Shown one piece after another: positions 1 through 61,700 of a stretch of DNA of 64,000 nt. The first letter of the stretch is position 1. Every line of letters begins with the position of its first letter. The notes under the pieces are model-generated. The model saw only the letters and a program-made list of their open reading frames with translations, was not told the origin of the DNA and did no database searches. Made by a program: the position numbers and the translations under genes. Source of the DNA: Euglena gracilis (taxonomy: Eukaryota); assembly GCA_039621445.1 (NCBI GenBank), contig CP154954.1:9302634-9366633 (forward strand). Reading direction: 5' to 3'.

Positions 1-58
1 AGATAAAATGGTCGCAAAGAGAGGACCATCCAAAAAAAGAACTCACCTCCGCCGGGGT

Positions 59-6275
<6,217 letters not shown>

Positions 6276-6281
6276 GGCGGC

Positions 6282-8676: not shown

Positions 8677-8931
8677 AACACAACCGTTGCGTGTTATGCA
8701 GATTGGCACTGTCCATTTCAGTGCATTACGCAGCCTGGCGGAGTCCAGAATATCCAATCACACCATAACTTGAACTTAAAAATGCCATTTTAATATCTTT
8801 GTCATTTTCTTCCACTTCATCTGGCGGAGTGTGACGATTTGGCTGGCACGTGTGGTTAAAATACCCACTTGTGGTGTAGTGAACAATTGAGAGGACCCAG
8901 GGACCAGATCCAAAACAGGCAAACGGTGCAT

Positions 8932-9118
<187 letters not shown>

Positions 9119-14368: not shown

Positions 14369-14680
14369 GCGCGCCGGAGGAGGTGAGCTGGTAAACTGCA
14401 CACCATTTTGCCGTGGTATACTTTTGTGGTGATTTTTGAATGGTTTGCTGGTGGTCATGACAAACATGGCAGTCACACAATTCTGTTTGCTGGGCTGGCT
14501 TTGGTCGCAGACAATGCACAATCGCTTGGGGGGAGAAATACCAAAATGAAATGAATCAAATGATATGTAGCGCTCGGGCAGCTGTGGCAGAAAGGTCCAT
14601 ACCGATGCAGATCCGAGCCAAAAGATAAAATGGTCGCAAAGAGAGGACCATCCAAAAAAAGAACTCACCTCCGCCGGGGT
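14369..14680 (-). other. Nonconventional intron 9 of EHD copy B
   Basis: ACC-CCGGCGGAGGTGAGTT...AGCTCACCTCCTCCGG-CGCGC, a 16-bp stem. The join gives KADLMYDLLE. Confidence 0.88.
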
Positions 14681-15154
14681 GAGGTCAGCCTTCTCCTCAT
14701 CAAAGAGTTCATTGTTCAGGGGGGTGCGGTAGGGCTTGTTCCAGAATGACGACACGGCGGCAGCGACTCTGGAAACCGCGGAGGCACGCAGAAACCTATG
14801 TCCTCGCAGCACACAAAAACAATGAAAATTTGCACTTAAGAGCAAGAACAAACTTTCACATGCATGGGTGCATGGACAACGACCCAGCCCCTGGTTTAAG
14901 TATCAGACACCCTCACCATGAGTCACCATTTGAAGGTCTCCTCACAGACACCCCTGGGGACTTCAAAGGGAATAAATATAAGACGCCCCTGGAAATATGA
15001 AGCAGAATTACAGCCGAAATGAAATTGCACAACGTGCACCAAACAACAGAGTTGAGAAAAGTTTTTTTATTGACCTCAAACTTTTGTAAGGTTTTTTTTA
15101 AAAAAGCACAACAGAACATACGGCAAATAGAAAAGATATAGGTAACAACAATCA

Positions 15155-15502
<348 letters not shown>

Positions 15503-16774
15503 TCAGTGACTGTGTGTGTGGACTGAAATAGGATGCCACAGTCGGCTCAGAAGCAAGAGAAGTATGCAGCAGCTGACTTTGGCTGTCGTCATCCCACCGG
15601 AAAGAAAGGAGAATCCTTTCGCGCGACTTGGCCGGAGCGGAAACAAAATCAGGAAGCGTCGCACGGGGGCTGGCCCTGGGGTTCACACGCGTCTGCCTTG
15701 TTGAGAACCATCCGGAGCTTGCTCTCAGCGTCAGGGGTTGTTGGTAGGTTTCGGAATGAAGCAGCAGAGAGCGGGGGGATTCTGTGCGGCGAGATTCCCA
15801 TGCACCAAAATGGCGCAGACAGCAACTTTTTTTTAAAAAAATTGCCGGGAAGGGATTCGGTCCCATGTAGCCTGCCACCGCAAAACTGGAAAACGTCCAA
15901 ACCCCGCTCCCCGTTCCAGCAGGGCGGAAGCACAAATGGAGACCCCCACGAGTGCGCCAGGCAAACTGCCGAGGAAGGAGGCCGGACCCAACAACGTCTG
16001 CCAGTGGCCCCGGAACTGCTGGAACATGTTCCGCAGCTCCACCCCTGGGAACAGGCCCGACAGTTCCCGAAACACAGCTTCCCACCAGACCCCTCCGCTT
16101 CGCTGATCTCCAGAACTTCTGAAATACCGACAGGGTCTGGCAAATACCATTGATCACCGACCTGTCACTTTCCACCAGCAAGTGGCTTTTCAAAAAACAG
16201 TCACCCACTTCCTCCCCCCCCCCCAGGAGGGTTGGTTGCTTTGAACACTCAGGAGGGGGGTTCAGAGCCAAAGCCAGACAGTCCCCTCGGGTGGGCTCGG
16301 GCATACCTTAAGAAATGGTATGGTCTGGCAGGGTTCAACATGGGGCACTAACTTGCTTATTTGAAATGCAACCTCCCACAAAAGCCTCCCTGGCCAAGAT
16401 CTACCCACTCCCCCTGTGACAAGTTGGCATCCAAGATTGCGCCTGCCAACATGGGTGACAAACTGGCATACAAAGTGGTGGTTGAGGGCCGAAACAATTG
16501 TGGATGAGAGAGCATGGATGAACAGGCGAACCGATGTAAACTGTCCCACTGACAGGTTGGCTGGTACTGGGAACCCGGACGACTTCCTATCATGACAGGT
16601 TGGCCAGTGCCAAGGACCCTGAAAGTTCCCAGGCGGGACCCTGACGTTTTCCCGACCCTGACAGGTTGGCTGGTACAAGGGACCCTAACAGTTTCCTGGA
16701 CGGGACCCTGACAGATTCTCAGGCATGACAGTTTCCCGGGGGGGGGGGGGGGGGGAATGAGCTAAAACTTTTTA

Positions 16775-16942
<168 letters not shown>

Positions 16943-19900: not shown

Positions 19901-20302
19901 TTGTCGGTGGTCGGCTGGGGCCCCGTCCACAGGTAGTCGTGGCCGAGGAGGTAGTTGATGAACGTGGACTTCCCCGCGGAGAAGGGGCCGAGGAAGAGGA
20001 CGAACGGCTTGGAGGACTTCAGCGTGTCGGCAAACCAGCTCGGCCGGAACACCTCGTACTGGAACCGCCGCTCCACGGGCTCGATCGGGGGCAGGCGGGG
20101 GGCCGCAACGCACGTGTGCGCACGCACGCACACATACGCGCACGCACACGCACACAACACAACACACCCACAAATACACACATACACAACACACACACCA
20201 ACATACGCAACGCAATAGCACAGCACAGCACAGCACAGCGCAGCGCAGCACAGCACAGCACAGCACAGCACAGCACAGCACAGCACAACACACACAAACT
20301 CC

Positions 20303-20368
<66 letters not shown>

Positions 20369-23253
20369 CATACCCTCCCCCCTTTGTGCAAGTCACACCA
20401 ATGTTCAGGGAATGTGCCATTGACACGGGGGGTGTCAATGACATGGTGTGTCAATGACACTGTCGTTCAATGAAAAAAACCTCAGGTATCATTCCGGAAA
20501 AAAGCTGTTGACATGGGGGTAGGTGTCAACGGTAAAATCTGTCTTGGACAAGGGGGGATACCAGGCTTCTTTTTACCAACCCTGGGGAGGGGTGCCTTGT
20601 GGGGCCTGCCCATAGCAGGCACACCCCCCGGGTCGGTTTTAGGTCCCAGTGCCTGCCGACCAAGCAATTTTCCTTGAAAATGGTCATTTTCGGGCCTTCG
20701 GGCGCCTTCGGAGCCGGGTGGGGGGGGGGTGCTTCAGCACAACTCACCCCGAACCCGACCCCCCCCCCGGGACCAAAAGTGCCCTACCCCCACCAGCCTG
20801 CCTGTGGCACCCACTCCCCCCGGGGAGGGGGGGGGGGCGAACTTCCTTCAAACCCTGCCCACAACCACCGGCCGCCGCCTGGCCGCCTCGTTGTAGATGC
20901 GGCGGATCTCGCTGCACGTCGCGTCAAACTGGTCCTGCCACGACATGGCGGCCCCGGCAGGCCCCGGCCCGTGTCGGGGGGGGGGGGGACTCATACGTCA
21001 GAAACACTTGGCAATTGTGCTGTGATATCTCGGCTTTTCGTTTCACTCCGGCCAATGCAGGCAAGGAACCGGACATTCGGTCATCGGCTGCTTCCGGGTT
21101 TGACTGCCTGGCATTCCGGCGGATTCAGACGGGACGATTCGGTGGAAGCGCTTTTGCCATTTTGTGGCGTTCAAATAGTGAAGTTTGGGCACCCCCTCCA
21201 CCCATCGACCGCCAGTGACAGGCATATCCTGCGTCCTACATGCTGAAAAAGAACTTGCCAAAAATTTGACCCAGATCCTATTGTATAAGCCCAAACTTCC
21301 CAAAAAGGGGGCCAAACACCCACCGACGAGGGGGAGGGCTTGGGGGGGGGGGGGCAACATCAGCTGGAAAAAATGATTAAAACCCATATTTTTAAAACCC
21401 ATAGTGTCTGGGCGCAAATCCGGGGGGGGGACAAGGACCACAAAAGAGCAAATAAAGGCAATTAACTGGGGGGGAAAATCAAGAAAAAAATGAAAATGAA
21501 AAACAAGAAAGGGGGAAATGAAAAAAAAAACTGCAAAATAATCCTGCGAAATGAGACCACCCCACACTAAAAGCTCAGAAGAGAAAAAAAACACCTGGCC
21601 TCATCCAAAAGACCACCATCCAAAAAGCTGAAAGATTTCGTGTGCCGGGGTTCTGGAGGTTCACAGCCGCAGCCTGTCCCCAACTTCAGGCCCAAGCGAG
21701 CCGGTGGGACGCCGCGGCCCACGGTCTGTCGCCCACACTGCGATGAGCTGACGAGACATGGGGAAGAAATAATTTTCGGGGAAAGGAAATCCGAGTTTCA
21801 AAAAAAATATTGGTATCGGATGCGCACTTGAAGATACCAAATACCATGTCCCCTCCTCCGGATAACTCGGATTATTGCAGACCTTTTCTCTCGTTCCTCC
21901 CGGGTGGGAATCATTCCAGGGGACTTTTGGATGGTGAAGGGTGTGAAAAGGTGGCCGGGCGTTGCGGAAGGCAGGTGGGCTGAGAGGGCGCCGTTGGCTT
22001 GCCCAAAAAAAAAAACGTTTGGATGGCTTGCGTGCCCCCCCCCCGCCTCAGATTTGGGGCCGGAAACGGACATCGATACCCCATTAGCTGTTGGCCGACC
22101 CAATGCAGACGTTTATGAACCAGCGGTACTGTTGGAAAATAGCCCACTGAGGCGGAGTGGTGGCCAATTGGGCAGCAGCACCCAGAATGGTGCCTGAACG
22201 GCGGATGACTGCGTTGAAACCACGAGCTTTCGAGCTTTGGGTGTGCATCGCCCAATGGGTTGGTGACCATTGATTGGCCGGCTGGAGAATTCCAGAGGGG
22301 GATTGCGCAGTTAAAAAAAATTAGCAATTTCTTTTGGGGACGCGCGCGTGTATGAACCAAGTGCATGCCACTGGAATTGTGGTACAATTACACACTTTCA
22401 ATGTGTTCCCAATCCTAGGAAGCACCGGGAGGATCGCCACTTTGGGATCCAACAAACTTGAAAATTTGAACACAGGGGTGAAGAAAAATGGCCAAAATTG
22501 CATCGGGCACCTTTGGTCTTTGGCGCGCTTTGCCTCCCGGGGAGGGGGGGGGGGCTCAGTCAGCCACACTGAATAAAAAAAAACCTGACCCCTGGAGTCG
22601 TCCATGACCCAAAAAAAAATCGAGGTTTTACATCAGAACGACGAAAGGGAAGTGGAGCGGTTGTCTGTGCGCAAGTTTATACAGCGGAGGCACAATTGGA
22701 CGACGGAGGCAGAGAACACTGCATAGAGTGAGTGGTCGAAGTCTCTTCACTAGTGGAGGCAGGGGGAGAGGGGCAGGGACTGCGTGATGTCGATGGGCAT
22801 CAGTGATCAGGGCCACGTGAACGGAGCAGGGCCCCAAATGGAGGGGTGGGCGAACATCCAATCGCTGGACACGCCAACAAGGTACTTTCTTTGAAGGAGA
22901 AAAAAGCGTCCCCTGAGTCACACAGAGGAGTGCCCATTCAGGTCAGCCACAATCCACTCTTGGACTGCTTGAAATGCACATTTTTTGATTGTGTCAAAAA
23001 CACAACCGTTGCGTGTTACGCAGATTGGCACTGTCCATTGCAGTGCATTACGCAGACTGGCGGTGTCCAGAATATCCAATCACACCATAACTTGAACTTA
23101 AAAATGCCATTTTAATATCTTTGTCATTTTCTTCCACTTCATCTGGCGGAGTGTGACGATTTGGCTGGCACGTGTGGTTAAAATACCCACTTGTGGTGTA
23201 GTGAACAATTGAGAGGACCTAGGGACCAGATCCAAAACAGGCAAACGGTGCAT

Positions 23254-23339
<86 letters not shown>

Positions 23340-25149
23340 GCATAAAACAACGACCAGCAACGTGGATGGGTGGGACTCCTTCCGAGCTATGAATTGATGA
23401 AATGGGCAGTTGAAGGCACACGTGGAGAGGCCAATGCACGTCCATCATCTTGCTAACTCTCTCCTGGACGTCTTGTTTGCATCTCCTGCACCTGCTTCCT
23501 CTCAGAAGATCATGGTATGAAATGGAGGGGGGGAGGCTTCCATATTCATAGTCACTTGTGTATGTCTGCAGTATGGAATAAAAAAGGGGAGAGGGGCTTC
23601 TGTTTGAGCCAATGATCGAAAACCAAGGAGAGATTCTATTCGTTGGAAAGGAATGAGGCCACGGGAGTGCACTCGGAACCCCCAACAAACCCACCCAAGT
23701 TATTTTCCCAGTCCATCTGCTTCTGCCCAAAGTCTGCCTAGAGTAAGGAATGCGCCTTATCCCAACGATACAGTGCCAAGAGCTCAAATGCAACCTCCAT
23801 GGAAGTGCATACATCGATGTAGCAATGTGAAAAATAATAGAAACCCCATGGGGGCTAAGATTTGTGGGAAGGCACAAATAGTTCTCGATTGGGGGGGTGT
23901 GAGCATCCACCGAGAAATGGGAGAATCCCCCCCCCAGAAACAGGCAACAACCCCCATCTGCCTGAAAAGCAGTGCAGTGAAGCCCCTGCCTGAAATTGCT
24001 TCACCCAAAATTGGCCAAACATATTTAAGGCAACAATACTCCCGGCCGAATATCCTGCGGCTCTTCGTTCCCAAGGCAGAAAGGCTTGGGGTGGGCCACT
24101 GAAAACCATCCGCGGGTTCACTCACAGTGCCCTCTCCCCACAGCTCAGGCTCTGGTACCCAGAACGCTGGAAGGCAATGTGTTTGGAAATGGGGGTCGGG
24201 AGCAGGAACGGGAAGGAAGATGGCAGCCACACAGCTGCTTTGGTGGGGCAGACCTTCCACTGTCACTTTTGGAACCATACCGGTCCCGCCTTTGCCATGG
24301 GGGAGGGGGGGAATGGATGAACCCTCAAGAACGCCATGAATGGTTTCTCAAAAAAAAAATGCAGCACGTGCTGTGGGGCTGCGTGGTACCTGCAAATAAC
24401 CCGTGGAATTCCCGATGGCTTGCAATTCCCTGGTAAACAGAGCAACCCCCATTGCCGGTATACATGCATACGCCGTGTGCAAGGTCCTCCTTGGCCCATA
24501 CGAAGGTGTTAATGGTGGAAAATTGACATTAACAAAATTCAAATCTTTTTCTCGAAGCCCAATGAAAGCAGCGTCATTGTTCCTCTCCCACCCCCCATCC
24601 CAGCAGGATTGTGGGGGGGGGGATATTTTTGGAGGAAAAAACTGGCTCAAACTGTGCAAATCTAATTTTTAAACAATTGATTCCAGAATGCGGAAAATGT
24701 AATTTGCATTATTTCTTGCAATCTTTGGGTATGGTGGCACTCACCAGGCATCCAGCATCCTCCTCTACTGTACTGTAGGCCTTTGAATGAGACGGGGGTC
24801 CAAGATGGTGGGCGGGAACAAAAGTTCACAAACTTTTAGGAGTGAAGACTTTCTGACCTCAGTGGATTTACCCCTTTTGAATATTGTTTTTTTGTCACCA
24901 AACGTTTGAGAGTTCCAGTTTTTGAGATTTTTTTGGGGAACACCAATATTTGGACAGCCAAAAATCCAACCAAGCACAGGTCTTTGACAAGTCTGCGCTT
25001 CTTCTCCCGGTCAAAAACCTGTCAATGAAAGAAAAGGGAAAAAAGTGTGTCAAGCTGTTGTGTGAAGGCAGCGCACAACGAAGTGGGGGGGGGGGGGGGG
25101 AGGGGGTCAACTATGTGGGAGGCCAGGTTATCAGGTCGGGTCAAGTGTC

Positions 25150-38600: not shown

Positions 38601-41600
38601 TTAGACAAGGGTGGTGCTTAGACAAGGGGGGGGGGACAAAAAAAACTGAACACAACACAGCATTAAATGATACAACATCACACAATGAAGCACAACGAAG
38701 GACAAGGCAGAATGCAGTGCCATGCAACACAACAAAACGCAGCGCAGCACAATGCAACATAACACAACGTACCACAAATATTATATTGCAATGCAGAACA
38801 AACAACAGGAAATACAACACAACTCACAGCACTGTAATAAATCGCAAAATGAACTCTTCCAGCTCCTCTGTTGAACCAATGGAGCCGCCATACTCCACCG
38901 CGCTGGTAGGCACGTTCACGGCCGCCCTCTGGCCCCAGTCCAGCCGTCGACGGCCTCCTGCCACGGCCCAAAGTCCAGGCCACGAGCCCCGATCCGCTCG
39001 TGAAAGGCAGTCCACCGCTGGGCGCCGGATTCTGTCTCCGGGATCCAAATGTATTTTTTTTTTGGCGCCGTTGTGTGCAACACCGGACTAAATCACACAC
39101 CTGCCTGCCCAGCGACCGGGTTCCCACAACCGCAGACCAGGGGGGTGGTTGTACGCACCCCCTCACCTGCAACCCCTGACAGGGGGGTGGTCAATATTTG
39201 GGGGGTGTTTGGGGGCGGTAGTTGAAGTGTCCCACTTGTGTCAAAGAAAGGTAGAATGGCTTTTATTTGTCGCACACACCAAATGGTATGTATTCGAAAA
39301 AAAACGTGCATTCTCAGACCTCATTCAGTTGCATCGGTGCGCATATGTACTTTCTGTGCCACCATCAACATCAGAGCCCCCCCGGGGGGGGGGGGGGTTC
39401 TGACAGTCCAACCAGAAAAACACATTTGCAGGTGCTCGGCTGGGTCCATTCTGACCCCCCCAAAGCGGCCACCCCCACGCGGCGGCCAGGCCAGGAGGTC
39501 CTTTCCGCGGCGGGCGTCGCGGCCGCACAGCGCCTGGAATGTGGTGTTGAGCGTCGTCCCGGAGAGCCGCAGGCCGGTGGACGTGTCGGGCCGGCGCAGG
39601 AGAGCACCGAGGTCGGTGAAGGAACCGCCAGGCCGTGGCAATATCCTATTGTCTATACATGCATATATATATACATATATATACATATATATATATATAT
39701 GTATGTATGTATGTATGTGTGTATGTATTTATGTATGGATGTATGTATGTATACATATATATGTACATATATACAGACACGTTGTGTGTGTGTGTGTGTG
39801 TGTGTGTGTAGCAGAGCTGGGCAGGGATACGTAGACATACATGTACATATACATATGCATATGCACATGTATAAACGTATGTGCACCTTTTATACATATA
39901 TGCAGCAGAGCTGGCTAGGGTGCTGCTGTGTGAGGCTGAACTCGTGTACACACCACCACAGCCCATAAAATTAACATAGGCTTTTGGGCTTGGGGTTTTG
40001 ACTCAGGGCGGTCCTTAAGGGGAAAAAACCTCCAGCCGAGCACATTCAATGAAAAACCCACTGGGAAAAATGGCCAAAAAAATGCTATATTTTGGCAAAA
40101 AACGGGTCGACTTCGGGGGGAAAAGGCATCTGGCATACTTCGACCACAAGCCATCCACCCAAAACGTCCAGAAGAATAAGTTTTTGATGGTGTAATTTCT
40201 GATCCCATACAAGCCTCAGTTTAGCTCTTGGCCGTCCCTTAGGTCCTTAGGCCCTGAAGGCGGTCTTTGAGGGGCGGTGCTCACGCACTGCCCTGGGTTG
40301 AGTAAGCACCCACAACAACTCAGGGGTAAAAAAAAGTTGTTGGTACACTATATAAAAAAAAAAAAACAAAAAAAAAAAAAAAAAAAAAAAATCATAGGCA
40401 CAAACTATAAATTATTTCCTATGTACCACACACTACATACACATATATATACATTATATATCATACATAATATGCATCATACTCATACAATATACAGAAT
40501 CCATATGGATAGCATATCTGCATGTATGAACCTAAAAAAGCATAAAGTGCGCACAAAACACACATGCCGCCAACAGATGTGGGCCAGGGGGACATGAGCA
40601 GCGCCACATCGCCCATCGTTGCAGAGCGCGGCGGGAGAGGCGGGAAGCGTGGCAAGCAGCCACGCGTGTGGGGGACACGAGACTGCCGGGGGAGAGACCC
40701 GCACCGGCGGGGACGGCGGCGGGGGGTGGGGGGGGGGGGGGGGTGGGCAGGGTTGACGGGGCTTGTTCTCGAGGACCCCAGAGGGGAGAGGCCACCCACC
40801 CAACACGGACAGACCCTGCCAGGCGGGGGGGGTTCTCCCAGGGGGGCGGGCATCCCCCCAAACAAAACGGGCCGTCTAGGGCACTCCCCCCCCAAAAAAA
40901 TGCGGCGCTCTGCCCGAAACGTACTGGACCCACCCACCCACCCTCCCCCCTCCTCCCAGGGGGCTTCCGAGTGAAAAGAAACCTGGCTGGGGAGGGGGTT
41001 CAATCCCCACCCCGAGGTGGGGAAGATCAGTAGGAGCCCCCAACCAGGGGTTTTTAAAGACCGGGGGGGGTGTCCCCCCCACCCACCCTGGGGGGCCCCA
41101 GGTCCCTGCAGCAGGGAATTACACCCGGTTGCTCACCCGGCAGGCCGGAGCAACAAAAGGCACGGTGTAAGGGGTCCCTGGCCACTCACCACACAGCAAG
41201 CTGGGCCAGACGGAAGTCCGAGCCCCGGCCCTAAACAGACAGAGCCTTCGTGCAACTAAGGGGGGGGGAGGGGTCCAGGGGACAAAAAAATGGCCGAAAA
41301 AAAGCTAATAAAATGGCACTTTTTCAAAATGTTTTCGGCCCGAAAACATCAATCCCACCCCCCCGGGGAACTCCCCCCCCCCGTGGGGGCTCGGCCGGGG
41401 ACCCTTATCCCCTCCCCCCCCCCGGGCAGGTTCAGACTAAAAACCCCTGCCCAACCTCCATTCACACCACAACAGGAAAAATATATATTTCGGCCATATA
41501 AAAAAAATCGCCAATTCAAAGACAGTCGGCATTCAAGAAAAAGGGAAAGGGGTGGTGGTGGTGGTTTTGGGGCGGTTTCGGACCCACACCTTTGCCGTTC

Positions 41601-48337: not shown

Positions 48338-51300
48338 GTTTTTTGCAAAAATACTGCCTGCGTTCCACGGGCCGGACCACTTCTCCAGCAGCAGTCACCC
48401 GAGGGGGGGGGGGTACGCCATACCCACTGTGGGGTCCAGAACGGCCACCCGGTTTCGCGGTCGCGCCAGCCCGGGCTGGCCGGGGCGTAGATGGTGGACT
48501 CCCACGTGACCTGCCGCTGGCCGGCCCACGCCTGCGCGTACGGCACCGCCTGCCCCTCCGGCCCGACGCACTGCCAGTCGCCGAGTGACAGCCGGCTGTC
48601 CCCCCGGGCACCCCCAGGGCAGGCCGGGCCGAGCACCCACAGACACACGTGCTGCCCCGGGGGGAACTGCCCCCTCACAGGTCAGCGGGTACCAGGAACG
48701 CTGACACTTTCCCGGGCGGAAACAAGCCGGATACCCGCCCCTCCTGGTCCCGCCGCCCTGGGGGGGGGGGGCAAGCCAGCACCTTTTCTTTAGCCAGCAC
48801 GCAGGACCCCCCCCCCCAGGGTCTCCTCAAGAAAACGCTTGCTGTCATGCTGGAAAAAAGGTGCTGGCTGAACAGGAGTAGGGACGAGGTCACGACCAAA
48901 TGCTCACATTTTTCAAAAACACCACCCCACTCCTGGGGGGGGGGGTCCCTCCTGCCCACACACCCAAAATCCAGCCCAAATCGGCTGAGAACCCTTGAAC
49001 AAAAAATTCTGGCCCGGCCTTCCGGCCTGGCCCTCCAAAAAGCGCAAAAGTTTGACTCATGGCACACCCCACCCCTCGGGAGGTGAGGTAACTTGGACCC
49101 TCAAAAAAAAAATGACGGAAAAAAACACAGAAAAAAAACATCAAAAACCCACAAATAAACGCAAAATGACGCCAGCAGCATTTAAATTCCTTCAGGAGCA
49201 TCCTCGAGATAATTTAGTTGTTTCACCTTCTCTGGGATAAAAAAATTTTCATGGAACTAAACTTTGCTGCGTTTCGATTGGATTTTGGAAGCATGTTGTT
49301 TCTAAATCATGCAATTTGTTGTCCAAATTACAAAATTTGAGAAAAAATTGGTCTCATGGATAAAGGTCGGGATCAAAGGGTGACATTTTTCCAAGCCAAA
49401 ACACATTCTCCACATATAAAAACACATTTGTGTCACCCCCTCCTGTTTGTACTAAAAAAAAAAACTCAATCAGCAAAACTAGCAGGAAGGATAGTTGATT
49501 GAAGACAGTGATTCCACGACAATATCGGCCCACGAAGAACATGAAATTGCAGGAGTTTTTAGGCCCGGGGTTCAGTGACGGCTCCGGGTTCCACCATGAG
49601 ACCGGGTCCAGTTCAGGGACATGCACACATCCCCCGCCTGATCCCCCGCCCTTTCCGGCCCACCCTGTGCCTGGTGGTACTCCGGCATCATGGGGCTGTC
49701 GGGGTTGGCGAAGGCAGCGAGGACGGCCTCGATGTCCGCCCCCGGGACAAACACCGCCCGCAGGCAGTGTTGCCCACCGCACTTTTGACGTAGGGCCAGG
49801 AGCCCAGGAGTTGGGTGTTGACCCCCCAACTGAGGAGCAGAGCTGAGGAGCAGTATGGCGAGCACGACCGAAAAATGTTGCCCCAAACAACGCAATAAAA
49901 AAGAATCCTAAAAAAAAGATGCAAGGGAGGGGCAAAAAAGATAGTTCCAGCAACTTGGCACCCCCCGTTTAGGTAAAACTCCTTTACGACGCTGAAAAAG
50001 GGGCCCAAATAACCTGGCAGGGGGGCAGGGCCAAAAGTTGGTTCCAATTACCAGGTTATTTGGGGGGAGGGGGGTTAAAAATGCTGGTCTGGGTTAGGTA
50101 TGTGCAAGCTATGCAAATGCAGTTCAGTATGCCAAACCCACAAACTGAAGATGGCTCTGCAGTCAAGCAGACCACTGAAGTCTGAACTCCAAAGAATTGG
50201 AGTTTGCTATTTTACACCTGCAATGTGCATTCTGTTGCAAAGATAAGTGACAAATGGATGTGCTCGCAGCTGGCATGCAAAAGAGCCTGGTAGTGAGGTG
50301 TGCAAGACTGTCCCTTGCAGGAAGAGGCTTTAGACACGGTCAACGAAAATGTACATATGGCAATGCATCTTTCTGTTGAAGACTTGCAGGTTTGGATGTG
50401 GCTCAGAGATAACCCCGAGGGAGGGGGCACTTTTTCCTTTCCAGCCTTTATGTTCAGGCAATCACAACCAAATGAGGAACCAGGCATGGCGATGAACGCC
50501 GGGTACCCCAGACGAGACGGGAAAAAAATATGAAAACACAAAATGAAAACATGAAAAATATGAAAACACGGGAGCGGTTTTTGCCAGAGCCCAATTTTTG
50601 GTGGGGGCATGGCCGGGCACATGCGTGCGGGAACCACCCCAGGGGCCCCGGAGGAGGCAAGCCCCGGCCTGCCTTTCCACCAGGGTGGAGAATGGGGAGA
50701 ACTCCGCGGCCATCTCGAGGGCGGTGAGGGCCCGCTCGTGGGCGTTGGCCACGGACGCCTTGAGAGGGACGTCCGGGCCGGGCGGAATTCAACCGACTCC
50801 CCCCCCCCGGGAGGGGGACCGGAGTGCCCTGGATCGGAACAACTGAGCCCCCTCCCCCCTGGGGGGGGGGGGGGGGGCAAGCACCGATGGTCATCCAGAG
50901 TCCCAGACCTAAGCCACGCCCAATCACGCCCAACCACACCCAGTCACGCCTTGTCACGCCAAATCCCAGTCATCCGAACTTTAAGCGATGGGCTCTTTGC
51001 CACGTTTGCCACTTCTGGCTGCCAGTGGCTGCTGTTGGCCACTTTTGGCTGTTTTTGGTAGCTTTTTGGTCGCTTTTGGTTTCTTTTGGGCCACTTGTGG
51101 CCAATTTTGGCCTTCTTTGCCCACTGATGGCTGCTTCTGCTGCTCTATGCCCACTTTGAGGCCACTTTTGGCCATCTTGGCCGCCAATTGACCCCCCCTT
51201 TTTTGTGTTCACTTTGACCCACAATTTGCCAATTTGCCTACTTTTTGGCCACCTTTTCCACTTTTTTGCTGCTTTCAGTTGCTTTGACCACTATTTTTTT

Positions 51301-53351
51301 TGCTTTTCACTGCTTTTGGCATCTTTTCCGGTGCTTTCAACTGCTTTTGGCCAGTTTTTGCCGCTTTCGATTTCAAAGATAAGAAGATAGGTGGTCAAAA
51401 ACTGGCCAAAAATGGTCCAAAGATGGCCAATCGTTGCGAAAAAGAAAATTGTTGAAAGTGGCAAAAGTAGATTAATAAAAATGATAAAAATGACCAAAAG
51501 CAATCTAAAGCAGCAAAAAAGCGTCCAAAAACGGCCTGAAAGTGAACCGTGGGCAAAATGGGCAAAAATAGTCAGGAGTTGGCAAAAGCAGCCAAAAGTG
51601 GCCCAAAATAACTAAAAGGGGCCAAAGGGGGCCAAAAGGGCAAAAATGGCGAAAAGTGGCGAAAAAATAGCCAGTCACGCCCAGTCACACCCAGTCACGG
51701 AACCCCACCTATGGGGGTCCCCAAAGCCAGTCACGCCCAGCCATGTCCAGTCACGCCCAGTCATTTCATAGGTGCTTGGGGGAAGGAGAAAGGGTCGGTA
51801 CCTGCCTGGTCGCGGGCCAAAAAAAAAGTGCCCAAAATGGTCTCCTGGCTTCCGGCACCGGAAGTGCCTTGGCCGAGTGCCCAAGCGCTGTTGACCATGT
51901 GCCTGACCCCCCCCCCCAGGGGCCGGCTCTGGGCCGACACCATCTTGAATTTCCTGCCCAGGCAGGCAAAACGCCCCCTGTGTGCACTGTGGGCTGTTTG
52001 TTTGGTCCCTTTTCTCCCCTCTTCTGGCCTGGCACCGTGTTTTAGTCTCTGCCCGTTTTGACTGTCTGTGTGGAGGCGACCGGAGCCTGGCGGGACTAAC
52101 GTTGTTCACTGCGCCGGCCACCAACTGCCCGCCAGGTACGCAGGCGCACCTCCCCCCCCCCCCCTGGGATCAGCACTGCCTTCAAATCCAGCCTAGTCGC
52201 GGCCGGGCAGGCCATCCAGGGCGCTGGCGGCGGAGGGGGAGCTCTTCGCCAGGGCCGCTTTTGGCCGCAGGAACCCCCGGGAGGGGTTGACTCGCGGCGA
52301 GCAAATGGGTGAGAAGGGGGTCGTTTTCCGTGTCATGAATGGTTCTTTCATCCCAACGTGCCATGCAGAGGGCAAAGGTCCGGGTGCGATAGCAAACCGT
52401 GAGGCAAACAATTTGCGGCCCATTTTAAGGAAGGAAGCCACCTGATATTTTCGGGATCATGTTGAAGAATGGTGTCTTTTAGGATGGAATAACAATACCC
52501 AGAACCAAATAGCAATAGCCTGGTTGGGGGCTGCTGGATGTAAAAAAAAAAAGGTGCTGGCTGGCTGGATCCTGGACCCTGCCTCCGGCTTAAGACGTTC
52601 CCTGACCGACACACACTTCTTCCATGAAGTCAACGGGGGACCCGGAGGCCCCTGTCCGTGGGGGTTTTGGTGGGCGCCTCCTGCGCCGTCGCGAACGACC
52701 GGTTGCCCGTCTCGGAGTTGGCGACGGAGGGGCTGTGCTTGTGCCGCGCCTGGCTGCGGCGCGCGCGCTTCCGCTCGCGGTGCCGCTCCACGCGCTGGTT
52801 GCGGCGGAGCCACGCTCCTGTTTTGAAACCCAGTGGGGGTCCCTCTTCACCCACCGATCCCCTGGAAGTGGGAGGAAGCCGCATTGGTCAGAGGCTTTAT
52901 TTGGGCCTGGCGATGAGGAGTCCGAACCCACCCAACCACCCACCCACCAGCCCCCAGGGGACAGCTTCGGAAGTCGATTTTAGGATCCAAATTTTTTCAG
53001 CGATTCGCATCGAAAACAAAAGCAAACCCCACTCCAGCCAGACCCAGGAGGTGGCAAACCCACCCTGGGTTACCAAATCTTAATAAAATTCACAATTTGA
53101 GGACCCAAAAAGGTGCCATCATGCAAAAAAAAATTTGGTCATTTTGTGACATTTCAGGATGTTCATCAATGTGCGGGAAATTAAATTGAAATTGAGTAAC
53201 TTCCAGATTGCATATGAAAGAAAAAACATCTCAGGGTGGGTGTGTCAGTGCCGGAGACCAAAAGGAACCTGGGTGGAACTCCCACACCTGCCGCACCACC
53301 TGGAGGCGGCTAACCAGCTGGGCGTGGAGCAGCTCATCGCTGCTCGCAATC
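25150..53351 (-). CDS. Large multi-exon gene encoding a VASt (StART-like) and GRAM domain protein, putative membrane-contact-site lipid-transfer protein; ends and many middle exons unresolved
   Basis: VASt-like exons at ~49671-49790, 48482-48609, 47465-47567, ~46746-46829, ~46146-46206 and ~45060-45150 join as ...PMMPEYHQ-ARGDSRLSLGDWQC...RQVTWESTIYAP-TKRVVQVLERQLF...KLVVQHSSCTPG-APYGTSFRVELGF...HVHFLQRTVMQRLIRS-TAGKELNKFNALL. GRAM-like exons at ~26640-26709, ~25898-26016 and ~25420-25495 join as GTLYVTYQRLAFYARFRRVTV-SWARVEQIDAVPGG...MGRCVEFGGFP-DPDGALLCL. More GC3-rich minus-strand exons lie at ~28165-28250, 29500-29580, 30700-30820, 32670-32830, 35060-35190, 36190-36350, 39490-39630, 50660-50780, 52680-52825 and 53289-53351. 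This could be more than one gene. Confidence 0.7.
26017..26639 (-). other. Nonconventional intron in the GRAM region
   Basis: GGG-CAGTGGCGGGGG...CCCCGGCACTG-CGGCC. The join gives RVTVSWARVE. Confidence 0.85.
27305..27748. mobile_element. MITE with CAG...CTG ends
   Basis: 13-bp TIR CAGGGGTTTTCTT / AAGAAAACCCCTG. Flanks AATTCAAT / ACTGCCAT (5/8). The internal GAAAAAGGTGCTGGCTGG motif also occurs at ~26340, 48853 and 52550. Confidence 0.75.
27842..28163. repeat. Poly(A) tract (second tract at 29080-29223)
   Basis: Near-pure A runs inside introns. Confidence 0.9.
29714..30291. repeat. (CACAC)n pentanucleotide satellite
   Basis: Perfect ACACC units at both ends with a noisy middle. (CAGCA)n tracts also occur at ~5560-5642 and ~20216-20286. 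Confidence 0.92.
36873..37272. mobile_element. Element with TTATATTTGGGGG repeats and inverted ends
   Basis: TTAAACCCCCCCAAATATAAAGCCCC ... GGGGCTTATATTGGGG(G)nTTAA. Confidence 0.55.
41045..41449. mobile_element. MITE with CAG...CTG ends
   Basis: 12-bp TIR CAGGGGTTTTTA / TAAAAACCCCTG, with CCCAAC directly repeated on both flanks. Confidence 0.7.
45151..46145 (-). other. Conventional GT-AG intron in the VASt region
   Basis: GAAG|GTGTGC...TTTTGTTGCAG|C. The join gives LIRSTAGKEL. Confidence 0.8.
46830..47464 (-). other. Nonconventional intron in the VASt region with a TSD-like remnant
   Basis: GAC-CAGGCTTTGGCAT...ATGCCGCGGCCTG-CTGGG. The join gives CTPGAPYG. The 8-mers flanking the stem are CAGGGGAC and CTGGGGCC. 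Confidence 0.88.
47568..48481 (-). other. Nonconventional intron in the VASt region
   Basis: GGC-CAGCCCGGGCTGGC...GCCAGACTGGGCTG-CCCTC. The join gives IYAPTKRVV. Confidence 0.88.
48610..49670 (-). other. Nonconventional intron in the VASt region
   Basis: GCA-CAGGGTGGGCCGG...CCGGCCTGCCCTG-GGGGT. The join gives EYHQARGDS. Confidence 0.88.
50878..51778. mobile_element. Foldback-like TIR element
   Basis: CAAGCACCGATG / CATAGGTGCTTG (11/12), with CAGTCACGCC subterminal repeats. The left half is TTTTGGCCAC-rich and the right half GGCCAAAA-rich. A similar architecture occurs at ~43662-44608. Confidence 0.6.
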
Positions 53352-53482
53352 TGTAGAGGGGAAGTGCAGTGCGGCAGAGTGGAGTCTGAGGCGCGGGCAC
53401 ACAATCAATCTGTGCACGAGCATGCATGCATGCACGTGCATGGCTGCAGCCGAGGGAGGTTCGCTGGATGGGGCTCTGGGGC

Positions 53483-53699
53483 CAGGCTTCTTTTTAAGTC
53501 AGCAGACCCCCCCCCTCCCCCCCGGGGGGGTGGGTGGGGGGGTGGGGCCGGGCCGGACCCCCCCCCCGGGGGGTCCGGCCAGACCCCCCCCCCCGGGGGT
53601 CCGGGCCGGACCCCCCCCCCCGGGGGGGGTTCGCGCGCCACCTTGGGTGGGTGGGGGGGTCCCCCCCTCCCCCCCCGGGGGGTCTTAAAAAGAAGCCTG
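53483..53699. mobile_element. Young MITE with CAG...CTG ends
   Basis: Perfect 16-bp TIR CAGGCTTCTTTTTAAG / CTTAAAAAGAAGCCTG. Perfect 8-bp TSD TCTGGGGC (53475-53482, 53700-53707). The interior is G/C runs. Confidence 0.95.
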
Positions 53700-56600
53700 T
53701 CTGGGGCGCCTTCAAGGACAAGGTGTTCCCCCCGCCCAGCGAGTAACGCTCTCCCCTCCCACTGATCCGCCGATCCGGTCCGCCCCTCAACACAATGAGC
53801 CTGGCCTCTGTCGGGCATCGCTGACCCTAGCGCAAACCCCCCTCTGCGTGAGAGCAGAGGTGGAGACCAACCTGCCTGACCCTGACCTGCTCCATTTCCT
53901 TACCTTCTTTGATTGTGCTTGCCTGGCTGGGGAACTTGCTGCCAGACGCAACAGGCGCCAATTATCTGACAGCAAAGTGAGTCATTAACTGTGGGGCAAT
54001 TGTGGACGACCAGGGGTGGGGGTCCCTAAACGTCGTGGTGTAACCCAGGGGGAATTGCCTCATTTTTTTCCATAGAGAATTCTGGTAAATGTCCCCAGCA
54101 GGATCGACATAAGGAGAGTATACGGGTTAGAGGAGGGGGTGTCCATCCCCCCCTGCCAAGGGGGTCCAGACCGACCCGGGGGTATCTGGGACCCCCCCCC
54201 AAAAGAGGTCAAATTTTTTCTTCCGGCTCTGCACCGAAATTTTTGTGCCTTTTTTTTGGCAAATTTCTGCCCAAAGGTGCACAAAATGACATTTTTGCCG
54301 ATTGGGGGGGGGGCAATGTTTTCTTCGGCCTGGCGCTTTGGTAACCCAGACCGCGCCATTGTACAGGAGCGAGGAGGGTGCCTCCCACCCCTACTGGATT
54401 GGAGGAGGGGGTCCGGCCACCCCCCACCTGCCTTTATATCGAACCCTGTCCCCGGTGCGAACTTGATGAAAGCAAAGCAAAGCAACTCAGCTTTGATATT
54501 TTTGGTGAAAAGCGTCGGCTTCGGTTCAAGCGCTCCGCCAAAGCGACTGTGGTTGGTGGGCACCGGCGGACCACTCGGCAGGGAAGTCATCCCCCTTTTT
54601 CTGGAAGATGCCTTCCCGACCCCCCAAACGGGGTTTTTTTCAAAAAGGTTGATGGCCAGGGGAGCAGGGCCCTGCCCCCTCAGTGGCCTCAGTGGGCACG
54701 CGGGGGTGTGAAACGCCGAAAGTTTTTGGGACCCCCTCCCAATGGCGAGTCCCCTCCGAGCCCCCAGGTCCACCACCCCCAGAGGGCATCGGGGTGGGTG
54801 CCGACCTCTCCAGAGTCTTAAAACAGCCTCTCCCATCTCCCGGGGGGGGGGGGGTTCAATGAAATGGTGCAACGGCGCCTGGGGGGGGGGGATTTTGCTG
54901 CGGGGGTCCGCCCAGACGACCACCTCAGCGGACAGCCAGGTCCAGCAACCCTCTCCTATTCTGCCCTCGTCCTGGATGCCGGTGGCAGGGCGGTCGGTCC
55001 AGCCTCCCCTTTGTCTTTTTTTCTTGAGTTTCTCATACTGCCCAAAAGTTTGCGTGCTTCCATTTTTGTCATTGCTAGATTTGTTGCCGACTGTTGCTGC
55101 GCCATAAATCCAAACCCAGGATTTTTTTCAAAGAAATGGATCGGATCAACCTTATCGGTGGTTCATTTGGGCAAACAAACCAAAACCTCAGCCCCAAGCC
55201 AATGCCAAAAAAACAATGCCAAAACCAACGCCAGCGCCAACTCCAACACCCACACCCACACCACCGATGCCAACACCTGGGATAGTCATTCCATCCAGAG
55301 CAAAAAATGCATTCCACAGCATCTTGACCTCAGTTTGAAGGGAACGTTGACGAGAGATTTTCGGATTTTTGTTGTTTGATTTGTATTCCCATTCTTCAAC
55401 GTTTGTCATGATGGAAAATCACACATGATAGTGGTGACCTGGTGGGTGTGTATCATCATGGAGTTGTCTCACCTTGATGCGAAGGCAGTCATCCTCGTTT
55501 TACGCCTCTTGTGCTGGCTGACCTACCCCCCGTTGTCTGCCCACCTTTTTTCGACGTTTTTTCATGGAAAAGGTCACGGGTACCCCTAAAGCATCAGCGG
55601 GGTGGAATATTCCCAGAACTATTTCGGAACACCCCGGGACCCATGAATTTCCCGGGATTTTTTTCGGGGCAAAATCAGAAATATCGGGCCAAATCGGGTC
55701 GTTTTTCGGGTGGGCAGGCAACGCGGGGCTAGGTCTGAGTCCCAACACCCTCGTGTTCTTCTGTTGGCGACTTGAAATCGGGCTGCCTCTTTATTTGAGC
55801 AGAACAACACCAGAATTGAGGTGTCGTGAGTTTGCACATCCCACCAAAGGGGAAGTCGGTCCCGAGGGGCATCACCCCTCCCTGGGGATTTTTCAGGATA
55901 CACCCCTTCCCCTTTTGCCTCGGCCACCTGCATGGGTGCTTGCGTTGCTGTGCCCTTTCTTTGCGGATTGTCCAACGCCCTAATCAGGTCGCCAGCCACA
56001 TGTGGGTAGAACAGTGTGGTGCGATGGTGTAAGCCTGCCCCAAATAATATACCCCCCACTCCAGGGGTTTCAGCTGTCTAAATTATTAGATTATGTCTAA
56101 ATTAAATAAATGTACCCCCCTTGCCGCACCCCAGAGATCAAGATCAAGCAAGGCAAAAATATCCTCAATTCCTGTCCAAAAAACAATATATTTTTGAAAA
56201 GATGTCTGGTACCGAAAAAATATGGCAGTGTTTACCTGAAATAAATTGTCAAAAAAAAGTTTAAAAATCAGAAATTATGTAAAGATGTCATTGTAAGCGG
56301 ATCCAAATGAATAAACGCCTAAAATAGTATCCCTCCTTGGCCCCCAACTTCGGATGTCCAAATAATATTCCCCCGGGTGAATTATTTGGGGACACCTGCT
56401 GTTGGCGAATGGAGGTGGCATAAGTGATGGGTGGCACCATGAGGTTTGTTAGACATGACCTCCAAGCTGACGGTGATAGATTATGTTTGGTGCAGTCTGG
56501 ACAAGAACGGGAGGCAAAACTACCATCAAAGTTTTCCCATATTTTTTGTAAGTTTTGTCTTCCGTAATCTCTCGTCCGTCCGCCCTGTGTCATCTTTCAC

Positions 56601-58111
56601 TGGCCTTCAAGCCACAGGTAGTCCACACCAAAATTATCACCAAAACATCGCCCCAAAAAAACCCAGATGCAAAAAATCCAAGAACAAGAACTCCCATTCA
56701 AATTTAAGAAGCCCCTGACGGCGTAACGTGCCGCTGACTGAATACGTTACCTCCAAAATTACCCGTAGCCTCAACTTCAGGCACCGGAATGATGAAATTC
56801 TGGTCTTTGATCATTGCAAGACCCAAGAATCATGTGAAGTCTCCATTTTCAGTACATAAGAAAATGAAAATAAATTTAAAAAAACTAGAAATTAGAATTT
56901 TGGGAAAGCACCTAAATTTTCCCGAAATATTCTTTCCTGTGCGCACCATTTTTTGGCCATTATTTTTCCTTTTCCCACGCCATTTTGAGCTGAGACAAAG
57001 CAAAACAATCGCACAGGCAAACTGCTCTACTGCCAGACACTTGAAAGTTCTATGTACACATTCTCAGACCAATTTCAATGATTATGAAACATAATTGTGT
57101 GGAACTGGTCAAATCAATTATGCCACATTGCAAGTTTGCACAAGTATTTTGGTGTGGCATTTTTTTTGCATTCTTTTGGGGTTTTTTTGGCATTCTACTG
57201 AAAATATGGCCTGTTTTATATATGCTTTTTTATATTTTATTATTTAGGGTTAGAGAAAAGGTGCGAACAATTGTCCAAAGTATCCACTGAGTTGAAGCGG
57301 AAAACAATCAAGTGAAAAGTTTTCCGTGGAGGAGATAAAATTTCTTTCTGAGTCTCTCCACCATGAAAGTGTGCAGCATTGCAGAGCTCCAAAATGAATT
57401 TACATGCAACTTGCATTTTTGCAGTCTTTTCTTCATTGCATATTTTGAGGAGCCTTGTTGCATCTTCCCCTCCCCATTGAGCTTGTCCGACGTGTGGGCT
57501 CCTCTGCACCACGTTGCATTCCAATGACTTTGCCCCCCTGCCCCGTTTCTCGCCCCCCATTGGCGGCATGGCGGGCTCGCCCGCTGTCCTCCACCGAAGA
57601 CAGTCTTTGATGACCTCTGCCAACCCCACACTGCTGCAGCTGTTGCGATTTCCTGTTGGCCTTGACACTCTGTTCCAGCGCCAAAACGGGTCTGGGCCAT
57701 ACCACGGGGGATGACTGACTGGGTTTTGAAAATTCCCAAACACCCAACCCCCCCCCCCCTCAAGGGGGTCGGCAAAAAAAAACACCAAGGTGACCCGGCG
57801 CCGGTGATTTTTCTGGACATTTTCTTCACAGTTCCGGTCGATTTTCCCTGAATCTGGGAGTGGTCAACCTCGGGGGGGGGGGGGGCATTGACAGACTGTT
57901 CTTTGAAGAACGGAAGTGACCCCCATGGGGATCAGTTAAAAAAAATTTGTATTGTCTGGACACACAGCCTCACGTGAATACATCCACAACGCAGGCAGGG
58001 TCAAAGATCAGCAGATTTTTGGCAGGCTCAGCCCCCATCAAGGATTCAGCCACCATTCTTTCCAGCAAGAAAATCCCTGAGTCAGTGTGCAGGTCCCCCG
58101 GGGGGGGGGGG

Positions 58112-58770: not shown

Positions 58771-61700
58771 TTGCGCACCTGCGCATTCTTTTGAGACCAA
58801 GTGTGTCGCCACCACTTGACGGGGCGGCCGACCCGTCAAGTGAAACCCCTGGTGCCAAAATGGGTACCACCACCTTCGATCCCTGGGTTTTTTCCTGGCC
58901 AAACCGACTTTTTTCGTTTTGAAAATGACGATTTAGCACCTCCGCGGACCGAGGGAAAACCCCCGTCTGCCGAAGTAGGTGCGACACAAAACGCTGTTTC
59001 ACGAGGACGAACCCTCGTCAGGTGAAGGCGTTGTACCTGTGGCTGCCCCCCTGTTTTGTGGACCCCAGTGAATGCGCAGGTGCGCATTCACCCCCCTCTC
59101 CGTCCCGGCCTTTTCCTGAAGTGTTGGACGGTTATTGTGGCTCCCAGGGGTGGTTGTGGGAAGCGGGCACTGTGGTCTATACGGTTAGAGTGGATGGGAG
59201 GTTCTGTGCCCTGTGCTGGAAGCAGGGCACGAGGGGGCGATGGTGAATGTTTGTTGTGTACGTGTACTCTGCATTCAGAGAGTGGCGGGGGGGGGTGTTT
59301 AAATCCACTCCAGATGTGTGTTGGGGAGGGCTCGTCACCCTCCTCAGGCTGCCTGCTGTTTGCCACTCCACACGGCACACTGCACCCCTCTGTGACACAT
59401 GCAGGCACACAGGGGGGGGGGGAAATGCAACTTGCATAATTTGCATTTTTTTGCATAATCGGCTTTTCCCGAAATTTGCATTTTTTTGCATTTTTTTGCA
59501 TTTTTTTGCATAAAATATTTTCCCCGGAAAAAAATTTTGTAGTTGGTTGCCATATGTTTGAATTTTTTTGCATATTTTTGCATTTTCTACATAAAATATT
59601 TTGCCCTGGAAAAAAATTTTGTTGTTGGTTGCCATATTTATGGATTTTTTTGCATTTTTTTTGCATTTTTTTGCATAAAATATTTTGCCCTGGAAATTTT
59701 TTTTGATCTTAGGCAGCAAAGCTCTGTTAGATTCCAGCTTTTTCTCAGGTTTTTCATGCAAGTTGCATTTTTTTGCATTTTTGGAATGGGGGTACTGGTG
59801 GTGGACAGGTCAAGATGCAGTAAGAGTCTAATGGAGGAAGGAGGAGACCAGCATGTATATATTAGTGAGAGGATAAGTAAGCGACAGGACTTTTTTGACT
59901 TGCATAATTTGAAGGGCCCAGTTGCATTTCCCCCCCCCCCTGAGGCACAGCATCCCTCCAGTGGCGCATGCCGTCCGCTCCCCATGTGCCTTCTCATAGG
60001 CACCACGGCACCTCACCATGTGGGACCACCTGTGTTTGGGTTGACGTTTGGGATGGGGTGCTTGGTATGGAAGGGGGGGGGCTGGCTTGCACCCCTTTCC
60101 TGCGTGTCACTGGTTTTTAAAGCTATGGAGCGGAGCCCCGCCTCAAGCCTTTCTGCCACAGACCATACCCTCCAGAACAGCCCTCACAAACAACATAAAA
60201 TGGCTCCTCTCCGAGGTTGCATGAGGCACAAGAATGCGCACGTGCGCACTCTTGAGGCCATTCCTTCGCTGGCTGGCTGTGATTCTATCTGCAGGAGAGC
60301 AGGAGGGGAGCAGCGCTGGGCATCCACAAGAGTGCGCACCTGCGCATTCCGTGAGGGGGAGTGCGCAGGTGCGCATTCTCTGTGTGCTGTGTCTCGCACC
60401 CCTGAACCCAGTGCCAGCACAGCATTGTGGTAGGGCTACCCCCATGGTGCACTGCTGGCCTTTTTGTTAGCAATTTCAGAGGCATCTCATTGCACAGGAG
60501 GATGCCGCCAGAGTAGGGTGTACGTCTCCTGGGCTGTGCCTCTACCTTGTGTGCTGAGTTGTTTGGCATGGGTCTCTATAGCAACCTCCTAACAGGGTGC
60601 TGTAAGGGGAGACACAGGAAGGGAATGCGCATATGCGCATTCACCCCAATGTGCCATGTTTGACTACAGCCATTGCGGATGGGGTGTGTGGAGAAGGTGT
60701 GTGCACATGTGCTTTCCCTGGTCTTCACAGCCGCCAGGGGTTGTGTAGTTTGCAGTGTTGGTGTGTCGACTCTGAGTTCATGATAAAAAAGGGTTGTGTG
60801 TGGTGGGTGACGTTTATTGCCAGCAAGGCCACAGGTGGTGGTCCTCGTCTGCCGTGTTTCGCTCCAGGGCTGTCTCGTCCTCCGACACCATTGGATCCTC
60901 CCAGGGAGGTCTACACTTCAGCTGTGTGGTTTCAAACCCAGGCCACTCGGGGGGGAGTTGGCGTGGGTGGTGGCAGCCCACCTGGGAGTGAAAATATTCG
61001 ACGGTGTGGCTGTCATTCAAAGAAAGGCACAAGACGATTTTTTGCGCATGTGCGCATTCACCAGCTTTCCACTCATGCCATGAAGGGCTGCTGACCGCAT
61101 TTGGGAATTAGGCTGCCCGTCACTGAGGAACTTCCTGGGGCATTGAAGTCCCTTTCTCATCCGTTTTCCCTTGGTATGACACAGTGGAATACACAGAAAA
61201 AGCAGAACGGAAAAACTTACTTGGTTTATCGGCAAGTTTTTGTTGTGATGTTTTTGTCCCTGTCTCACAATCTCAAGGGCCTGGAGAAATTTTGGGGTGA
61301 CCAGTGGTGTTCGCTTCTTTGAGTCCATCTGGATTGTAAATTAATTCTGTGTTTACAGACCGTTTTTGGGGAATGATGCCGAAGGTGGTGACAGGTGTGT
61401 TTCGCTCTCGAGGTGCAACCCCATGAGCACTGTGTGTGGTACCAGACACAACCCCCTGCGTTGACCCTAATTGTGGGGCACAGTGCTTCTTGCACCTCGT
61501 ACCGCAGCCCAACGTAAGGTTGTTCAGTGCGACCATTGGCTGTGTGCTGCCATGCACGCTCTGGGGCGTGGGGTTGGACAACGCTGGCATCAACCGGCCC
61601 ACCACCTCCGCTGGGTGGGGGACCGTTTCCTGTGTGTTGTTACGTGCTCCACACGTTCATGAGAGCAGCGCAGGCTGGGCTGGGCACTGGACTGCAGCGG

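Follow-up and report, generated by a model that had tools for sequence, protein, structure and literature searches.

A polymorphic CAG...CTG-ended mobile element in a coding exon of Euglena gracilis reproduces the nonconventional-intron code and is probably removed from RNA

The stretch of DNA analysed here, called the window below, comprises 64,000 nucleotides of the Euglena gracilis genome (contig CP154954.1, assembly GCA_039621445.1, positions 9,302,634 to 9,366,633), and all coordinates are given in its own numbering. It contains, at 53483-53699, a 217-bp MITE (miniature inverted-repeat transposable element) that interrupts the coding tail of a spliced plus-strand transcript. The insertion is polymorphic in DNA, RNA shows the transcript without it, and the ends of the element, together with the duplicated target site on both sides, have the layout by which euglenid nonconventional introns are recognized. 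The best explanation for the locus as a whole, and one that we consider probable, is the recent insertion of a MITE that matches the intron code and is taken out at the RNA level.

The element is delimited by terminal inverted repeats (TIRs) of 16 nt, beginning with CAG and ending with CTG, whose arms (53483-53498 and 53684-53699) are 100% complementary. The sequence TCTGGGGC abuts both ends directly and without a mismatch, as expected for a target site duplication (TSD). Mismatches at 53474/53699 and 53483/53708 bound this direct repeat on both sides, and it is hence exactly 8 bp long. These observations bear out, in coordinates and complementarity, what an earlier reading of the window had described from the letters alone (the sequence-only reading). 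Element and one TSD copy together amount to 225 nt. The interior consists of C-run/G-run palindromes, and the predicted fold of the element, in which the terminal stem is closed, reaches -198.9 kcal/mol compared with -171.4 +/- 5.5 in shuffled sequences.

This anatomy is far beyond chance. Inverted repeats with arms of at least 12 nt and a flanking direct repeat of 6-10 bp occur five times in the window; dinucleotide shuffles average 0.02 of them, two of 100 shuffles having contained one. The TIR 16-mer, with up to two mismatches allowed, is matched four times in the window where 0.03 matches are expected, a count that none of 100 shuffles reached. Furthermore, among the 209 CAG...CTG pairs of the window with at least 10 of 12 positions paired, a single one, the element itself, has flanks identical at 8/8 positions; at eight control offsets, no pair of the 209 showed such identity. 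Inverted repeats with arms of at least 12 nt within 4 kb are abundant across the whole window (652, versus about 24 in dinucleotide shuffles), and most of them are C-run/G-run palindromes that resemble the interior of the element and are scattered over introns and spacers.

Knock-in experiments on euglenid nonconventional introns, as described in the portion of the study accessible to us (PMC12501133), have established that CAG and CTG are each required, that the donor spacer has a fixed length of 3 nt, that pairing beside the motifs is needed, that the acceptor spacer is 5 nt with one more nucleotide tolerated, and that a purine is preferred at the start of the next exon; five fully synthetic 50-bp introns built by these rules were spliced. 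Along the plus strand, the order at our site is exon...CTCTGG / GGC CAG (followed by 13 further bases of the stem) ... CTG TCTGG / GGC...exon. CAG thus stands at +4 to +6 and is paired with CTG at -8 to -6 within a stem of 16 bp. The 3-nt donor spacer, the 5-nt acceptor spacer and the purine at the start of the next exon are present on either strand, and on the plus strand this exon also has a C at its third position. As 3 + 5 equals the length of the TSD, the intron rule takes out the element with one TSD copy and gives the uninterrupted message back. The symmetry of the element ends means that the register put forward in the sequence-only reading for the minus strand (53478-53702, with C|A at both junctions) works equally well, and the claim that excision would operate in either orientation agrees with the equivalent register that we find on the plus strand (53480-53704).

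In the scenario that we propose, the element would be a non-autonomous cut-and-paste transposon belonging to a multi-copy family of a euglenid-type nuclear genome. Its arrival in the coding end of a plus-strand gene, which duplicated 8 bp of the target, would be recent, and some copies of this gene still lack it. Its CAG...CTG ends, the 13 further paired bases and the two TSD copies reproduce the nonconventional-intron code and, since they do so, transcripts of the filled allele would most probably be cleared of the 225 nt formed by the element and one TSD copy, restoring the original message.

Four data sets were mapped onto 49500-57500: the raw RNA runs X21 and X24, which were chosen by species label and the second of which is stranded, the contig set X15 and the DNA contig set X6. 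That X15 derives from RNA is a guess, supported by its spliced contigs, whose joints are absent from X6. The sequence-only reading had left open whether the site is exonic and had taken the minus strand as transcribed. Our results show that the site is exonic and belongs to a plus-strand gene, whose stop codon follows 12 codons later: the translation of 53447-53482 is QPREVRWMGLWG, the upstream flank ending in ...LWG, and that of 53708-53746 is AFKDKVFPPPSE, followed by the stop codon. The element therefore interrupts the coding sequence of a spliced transcript, and a read-through of it would end the frame inside the left repeat after four foreign residues. In X24, first mates lie on the minus strand for the exons around the insertion site and on the plus strand for those of the neighbouring gene. 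Introns 54997-55863 and 56009-57522 carry CAG at +4 to +6 on the plus strand. Third-position GC, which is 0.91-0.97 in the undoubted exons of the locus, is 0.67/0.53/0.64 after the stop. A minus-strand transcript, considered because of the GT..AG that intron 53922-54948 shows on that strand, is rejected on the strength of the X24 strands, the CAG registers and the codon-position GC together with the stop. The strand was hence wrong in the sequence-only reading, which is harmless to its argument because the element ends are symmetric; the two minus frames that it described as open across the empty site are indeed open.

Since codon periodicity is lost behind the stop, the later exons are taken as untranslated. 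At least three introns are located downstream of the stop in 53747-57655, which makes for a multi-exon 3' untranslated region. In one of them, 53922-54948, the motifs are swapped, with CTG at +4 to +6 and CAG at -8 to -6, still paired, and it is the opposite strand that reads GT..AG.

The DNA contigs of X6 show that the element is repeated in the genome. Thirteen contigs part from the window immediately ahead of 53483, and 20 do so immediately past 53699; their flanks agree at only 0.4. Because the contigs break into unrelated flanks exactly at both ends, the element is one copy of a multi-copy family, its copies being recognized here from contig ends. A shorter variant, in which 53503 is joined to 53672, has a depth of 123.6. 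X6 also contains the empty site, that is, the sequence with one TSD copy: one contig joins 53474 to 53700 (depth 11.1, shorter side 30 letters), and a flank contig begins exactly at 53700 with a depth of 32.3. We read this pattern as the one expected at a two-allele branch of an assembly built from 31-letter words. No contig of X6 supports any of seven other intron joints seen in RNA, and X6 is hence genuine genomic DNA without cDNA contamination. As the joined form is present in DNA, an empty allele exists and the insertion is polymorphic, with about one-third of the X6 copies lacking the element and filled copies accounting for roughly two-thirds by depth. Over 8 kb, X6 and the window also disagree at many other positions (40 listed and 39 more).

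In RNA, the joint from 53474 to 53700 skips 225 nt and is ambiguous over the eight letters of the TSD. It is crossed by 11 reads at 11 different starts in X21 (6+5) and by three in X24 (0+3), while in X15 a single contig of 1751 nt and depth 67.5 runs through it unbroken and also carries the joints 53921>54949 and 54996>55864. The form without the element and one TSD copy is the only one shown by the three RNA data sets. The junction of 53477 with 53703 anticipated by the sequence-only reading is thus present in all three within the 8-nt ambiguity, but the same joined form also occurs in the DNA run. Nonconventional introns are released as circular RNA with full-length ends (PMC11282704); a back-joint, the sign of such circles, is absent from the 15 joints listed out of 106. 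Exon depth beside the site in X21, by our rough estimate, is about 16, so that the 11 joint reads represent roughly all of the depth there. Whereas X21 RNA at the site hence consists more or less entirely of the joined form, and X15 follows it without a break, only about one-third of the X6 DNA does. Furthermore, the letters of the window (G) are found in 9 of 31 X21 reads at 55922 and in 10 of 30 at 55988, both in the transcript that contains the insertion site. The remaining X21 reads have A at these two-allele sites; X6 DNA and X15 contigs have A only. With the window alleles in about 30% of the X21 reads, the assembled, element-bearing haplotype seems to be expressed. Given the match to the intron code, transcripts of the filled allele are likely to be cleared of the element as a nonconventional intron, a view that the reads support indirectly.

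An older case may lie about 200 bp away. Intron 52806-53274 of the neighbouring minus-strand gene is truly spliced, its joint being present in six X21 reads and in one X15 contig of depth 165 and in no X6 contig. [quoted passage not shown] The block CACCCACC is found at both ends of the intron, some 30-45 nt from the terminus, as it is in the element and in the related one at 41045-41449. Finally, the 8-mers before the CAG and after the CTG position match at 6/8, both differences being transitions, and this apparent remnant of a duplication is in the same register as in the element. Judged by these letters, the intron has the appearance expected of an insertion of this element type that became fixed and decayed. 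The idea of such elements being born spliceable, put forward in the sequence-only reading, is consistent with the exact code geometry and with this neighbour; it is the removal from RNA of the filled allele that we infer. Three introns of the neighbouring gene fit the order of 3 nt, CAG...CTG, 5 nt and purine on the minus strand without ambiguity.

Several points weigh against this reading. On the plus strand both junctions read G|G, where pyrimidine|purine is usual. Since DNA too contains the joined form, all joined RNA could in principle stem from the empty allele, and in the mapping of X21, X24 and X15 we saw no read tying joined RNA to the filled haplotype. Reads retaining the element are uncountable because C/G-run reads from elsewhere pile onto its interior. 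The runs may come from strains whose allele make-up is not that of the assembly, and the depth-based estimate is rough. As to ancestry, the elements at 41045-41449 and 59410-59942 (CAGG...CCTG) are flanked by repeats of 6 and 7 bp, not 8 bp, and the likeness of intron 52806-53274 to the element was noticed post hoc. Flank identity is 2/8, 0/8 and 3/8 for the three clean-register introns of the neighbouring gene and 2/8, 3/8 and 1/8 for the other three plus-strand introns, low values that are explained by decay and equally by the absence of any duplication.

These points leave room for a polymorphic MITE that is never removed from RNA, with the joined reads coming from the empty allele and the filled transcripts being retained at low level, silenced or degraded. 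The joined form in X6, at depth 11.1, agrees with this explanation, and retention of the element would create an early stop; degradation of transcripts with premature stops in Euglena is suggested in the accessible portion of PMC12501133. On the other hand, filled copies represent about two-thirds of the locus by X6 depth, and still the X15 contig, at depth 67.5, is unbroken across the joint, the X21 joint reads approach the whole exon depth and the window alleles are found in about 30% of the X21 reads of the same transcript. The element moreover satisfies every tested requirement of the splicing code. We hence consider non-removal unlikely, and removal of the element from filled-allele transcripts the better account.

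Two further explanations dispense with either the splicing or the transposon, and both are very improbable in our view. Jumps of polymerases and reverse transcriptases are a known source of false junctions, and the RNA joint could be a laboratory artefact of a jump between the 8-bp repeats that flank the predicted -198.9 kcal/mol structure, over a stable hairpin. Artefacts of this kind are usually minor and variable, whereas the joined form is dominant in three RNA data sets from three studies and is also found in DNA, at about one-third of the locus depth. Alternatively, the insert could be no transposon but a hairpin-forming sequence with 8-nt repeats left by double-strand-break repair, the source given, in the available part of PMC4770533, for the eight-nucleotide repeats at a newly gained gapC intron. 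Such an origin hardly accommodates the many genomic copies that share exact termini between unrelated flanks in X6, nor the related termini and subterminal motifs elsewhere in the window.

Table 1. Features of the window around the insertion and related elements
Feature	Position	Strand	Remarks
Mobile element (MITE)	53483-53699		217 bp, non-coding, multi-copy family
Left TSD copy	53475-53482		TCTGGGGC, 8 bp
Right TSD copy	53700-53707		TCTGGGGC, 8 bp
Left TIR	53483-53498	+	16 nt, begins CAG
Right TIR	53684-53699	-	16 nt, ends CTG
Internal tandem array	53544-53627		27-bp unit x 3.1, C-run/G-run palindromes
Predicted nonconventional intron	53480-53704	+	GGC-CAG...CTG-TCTGG, next exon begins G; same mRNA as minus-strand 53478-53702
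Exon piece upstream of insertion, coding	53446-53482	+	Third-position GC 0.92; below 53446, reads of all RNA runs part from the window
Coding tail downstream of insertion	53700-53746	+	Same phase, third-position GC 0.94; TAA at 53744-53746
Rest of exon, taken as 3' untranslated	53747-53921	+	No codon periodicity
Later exons of plus-strand transcript	54949-54996, 55864-56008, 57523 onward	+	
Neighbour gene exons	49669-49755, 50293-50312, 50675-50770, 52196-52262, 52658-52805, 53275-53352	-	
Nonconventional intron of neighbour gene	52806-53274	-	Decayed termini, subterminal CACCCACC, 6/8 flank repeat
Related 405-bp element	41045-41449		CAGGGGTTTTTA termini, 12-bp arms, shared subterminal CCCACCCACCC block, 6-bp flanking repeat
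533-bp element	59410-59942		23-bp CAGG...CCTG arms, 7-bp flanking repeat; no further likeness to 53483-53699
Solitary terminus	5873-5888	+	Shares first 14 nt of TIR; duplicate at 20562-20577

Other traces of the element type in the window are summarized in Table 1. The 405-bp element was considered as an intron between coding exons, a reading that is unsupported, the sequence on its high-coordinate side being AT-rich and non-periodic. A degenerate terminus, CAGGTTTCTTTT, is also matched at 40985 on the minus strand. The match follows, at a distance of 3 nt, a 51-nt stretch of high third-position GC (40989-41039), whose other side borders on the 405-bp element plus 5 nt; possibly this stretch is a small exon with an element-derived intron on either side. 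At 11808-12762, a pair of decayed termini, each agreeing with the element end at 9/12 positions and with flanking 8-mers that match at 6/8, is located between two minus-strand coding stretches and may represent another intron derived from an element. When decayed ends were paired under guidance of the TIR, 43 candidate pairs resulted, three of which, including the element itself, have a flank identity of at least 6/8; we regard this result as no more than suggestive. Scans of metagenomes for both TIR arms, spaced by 12-42 or 170-200 nt, returned no stretch.

The two spliced genes of the locus, 48575-53352 on the minus strand and 53446-57655 on the plus strand, abut within 93 nt. The minus-strand gene has one open frame of 165 codons across its exons, with a third-position GC of 0.91. 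Its RNA contig extends upstream of 53352 into sequence that is absent from the window within three errors, and its next exon hence lies beyond the tail of the plus-strand gene or elsewhere. The exon of the plus-strand gene that precedes 53446 was not located in the window, a stem-based search having yielded 8-mers at chance level only. A protein search among longer proteins with the plus-frame translation of 53701-53919 gave no match; this frame was later shown by codon-position GC to be non-coding. Farther away, 1-9983 and 14623-23964 form a segmental duplication (five blocks, 94-97% identity) that takes in a gene on the minus strand. The exons of this gene at about 5176-5460 and 19846-20145 resemble an EH-domain/dynamin-type GTPase with the P-loop GPFSAGKST, and its introns contain long TG/CA and TC/GA microsatellites (2266-3030, 8860-9255).

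The sequence-only reading called the element hAT-like. It shares with MITEs of the hAT superfamily the 8-bp target duplication and a short TIR beginning with CAG, and the label rests on these two features. Its terminus, CAGGC, fits the first four positions but not the fifth of what we take to be the hAT terminal consensus, 5'-YARNG. The weak target consensus, presumably nTnnnnAn, is not matched by TCTGGGGC, in which position 2 is C and position 7 is G, although this is one site only. No hAT transposase with matching ends was noticed in the window, no dedicated transposase search having been made. Membership in hAT is a candidate assignment that the duplication length and the CAG start suggest. 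Merlin transposons, which are documented in Euglena gracilis, likewise make 8-bp duplications, but their TIRs have a conserved terminal 5'-GG (PMC8101967), in contrast to the CA with which our element starts.

An origin of euglenid nonconventional introns from MITEs was proposed in 2014 on the basis of their inverted ends (PMC3935182), in line with the remark in the sequence-only reading that a transposon origin had been suggested in general terms, and the proposal was repeated in 2016, 2024 and 2025. In a review of 2024, the CAG/CTG ends are termed TIRs and the repeats at the junctions are described as TSD-like (PMC11282704). In our literature search, outside which lay subscription journals and supplements, we met no work in which a MITE family is identified as euglenid introns, a superfamily is assigned, or 3 + 5 is connected with an 8-bp duplication. 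The eight-nucleotide repeats (2016) and the spacers of 3 and 5 nt (2025) stand unlinked in the literature searched, and their sum is the length of the TSD. We tentatively suggest that euglenid nonconventional introns descend from CAG...CTG-ended transposons with an 8-bp TSD, that the 3/5 rule reflects the length of this TSD, and that the window may hold a live, polymorphic intron birth together with an older, fixed intron 200 bp away. If so, any insertion into a transcribed exon, in either orientation, would be erasable from RNA without a scar, which would explain the free spread of such introns through coding sequence and would offer a natural substrate for finding the excision machinery. The locus combines a family with exact ends, alleles with and without the insertion within a single species, a coding position and element-less RNA at the predicted register. 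The general theory of a transposon origin is strengthened by it but unproven, and a long-standing question is made testable.

With the euglenid nonconventional introns described so far (Milanowski et al. 2014, 2016; PMC12501133), the element has in common the positions of CAG and CTG, the stem, the spacers, and the purine and third-position C of the next exon. Instead of a solitary and decayed sequence, we find here an intact, multi-copy and polymorphic transposon with perfect repeats, whose removal at the RNA level we infer. A close single case is intron 4 of gapC in E. agilis ACOI 323, a strain-specific, newly gained intron with eight-nucleotide direct repeats that were ascribed to break repair (PMC4770533). 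As far as the accessible part of that article goes, it resembles our element in being present in some lineages only, in having all nonconventional-intron features and in its eight-nucleotide repeats; the same part reports no family of copies, in contrast to the multi-copy family found here.

The introners of Micromonas, Aureococcus and dinoflagellates, and the MITE-derived noncanonical introns of Fritillaria (PMC11282704), are alike in that the insertion of a short transposon with TIRs makes an intron and the TSD gives part of the splice signal. An introner-type family would have members that serve as introns in several genes; at our locus, one further intron, 52806-53274, has related ends, the subterminal motif and a 6/8 repeat. 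The introns of both these kinds are removed by the spliceosome, one splice site coming from a TSD of 3-5 nt (PMC11282704). Contrary to this, the two 8-bp TSD copies described here would provide both spacers of a non-spliceosomal cut that is measured from the stem, leaving no scar in either orientation. The locus represents a new and concrete form of intron making by transposons, in a system that works without the spliceosome.

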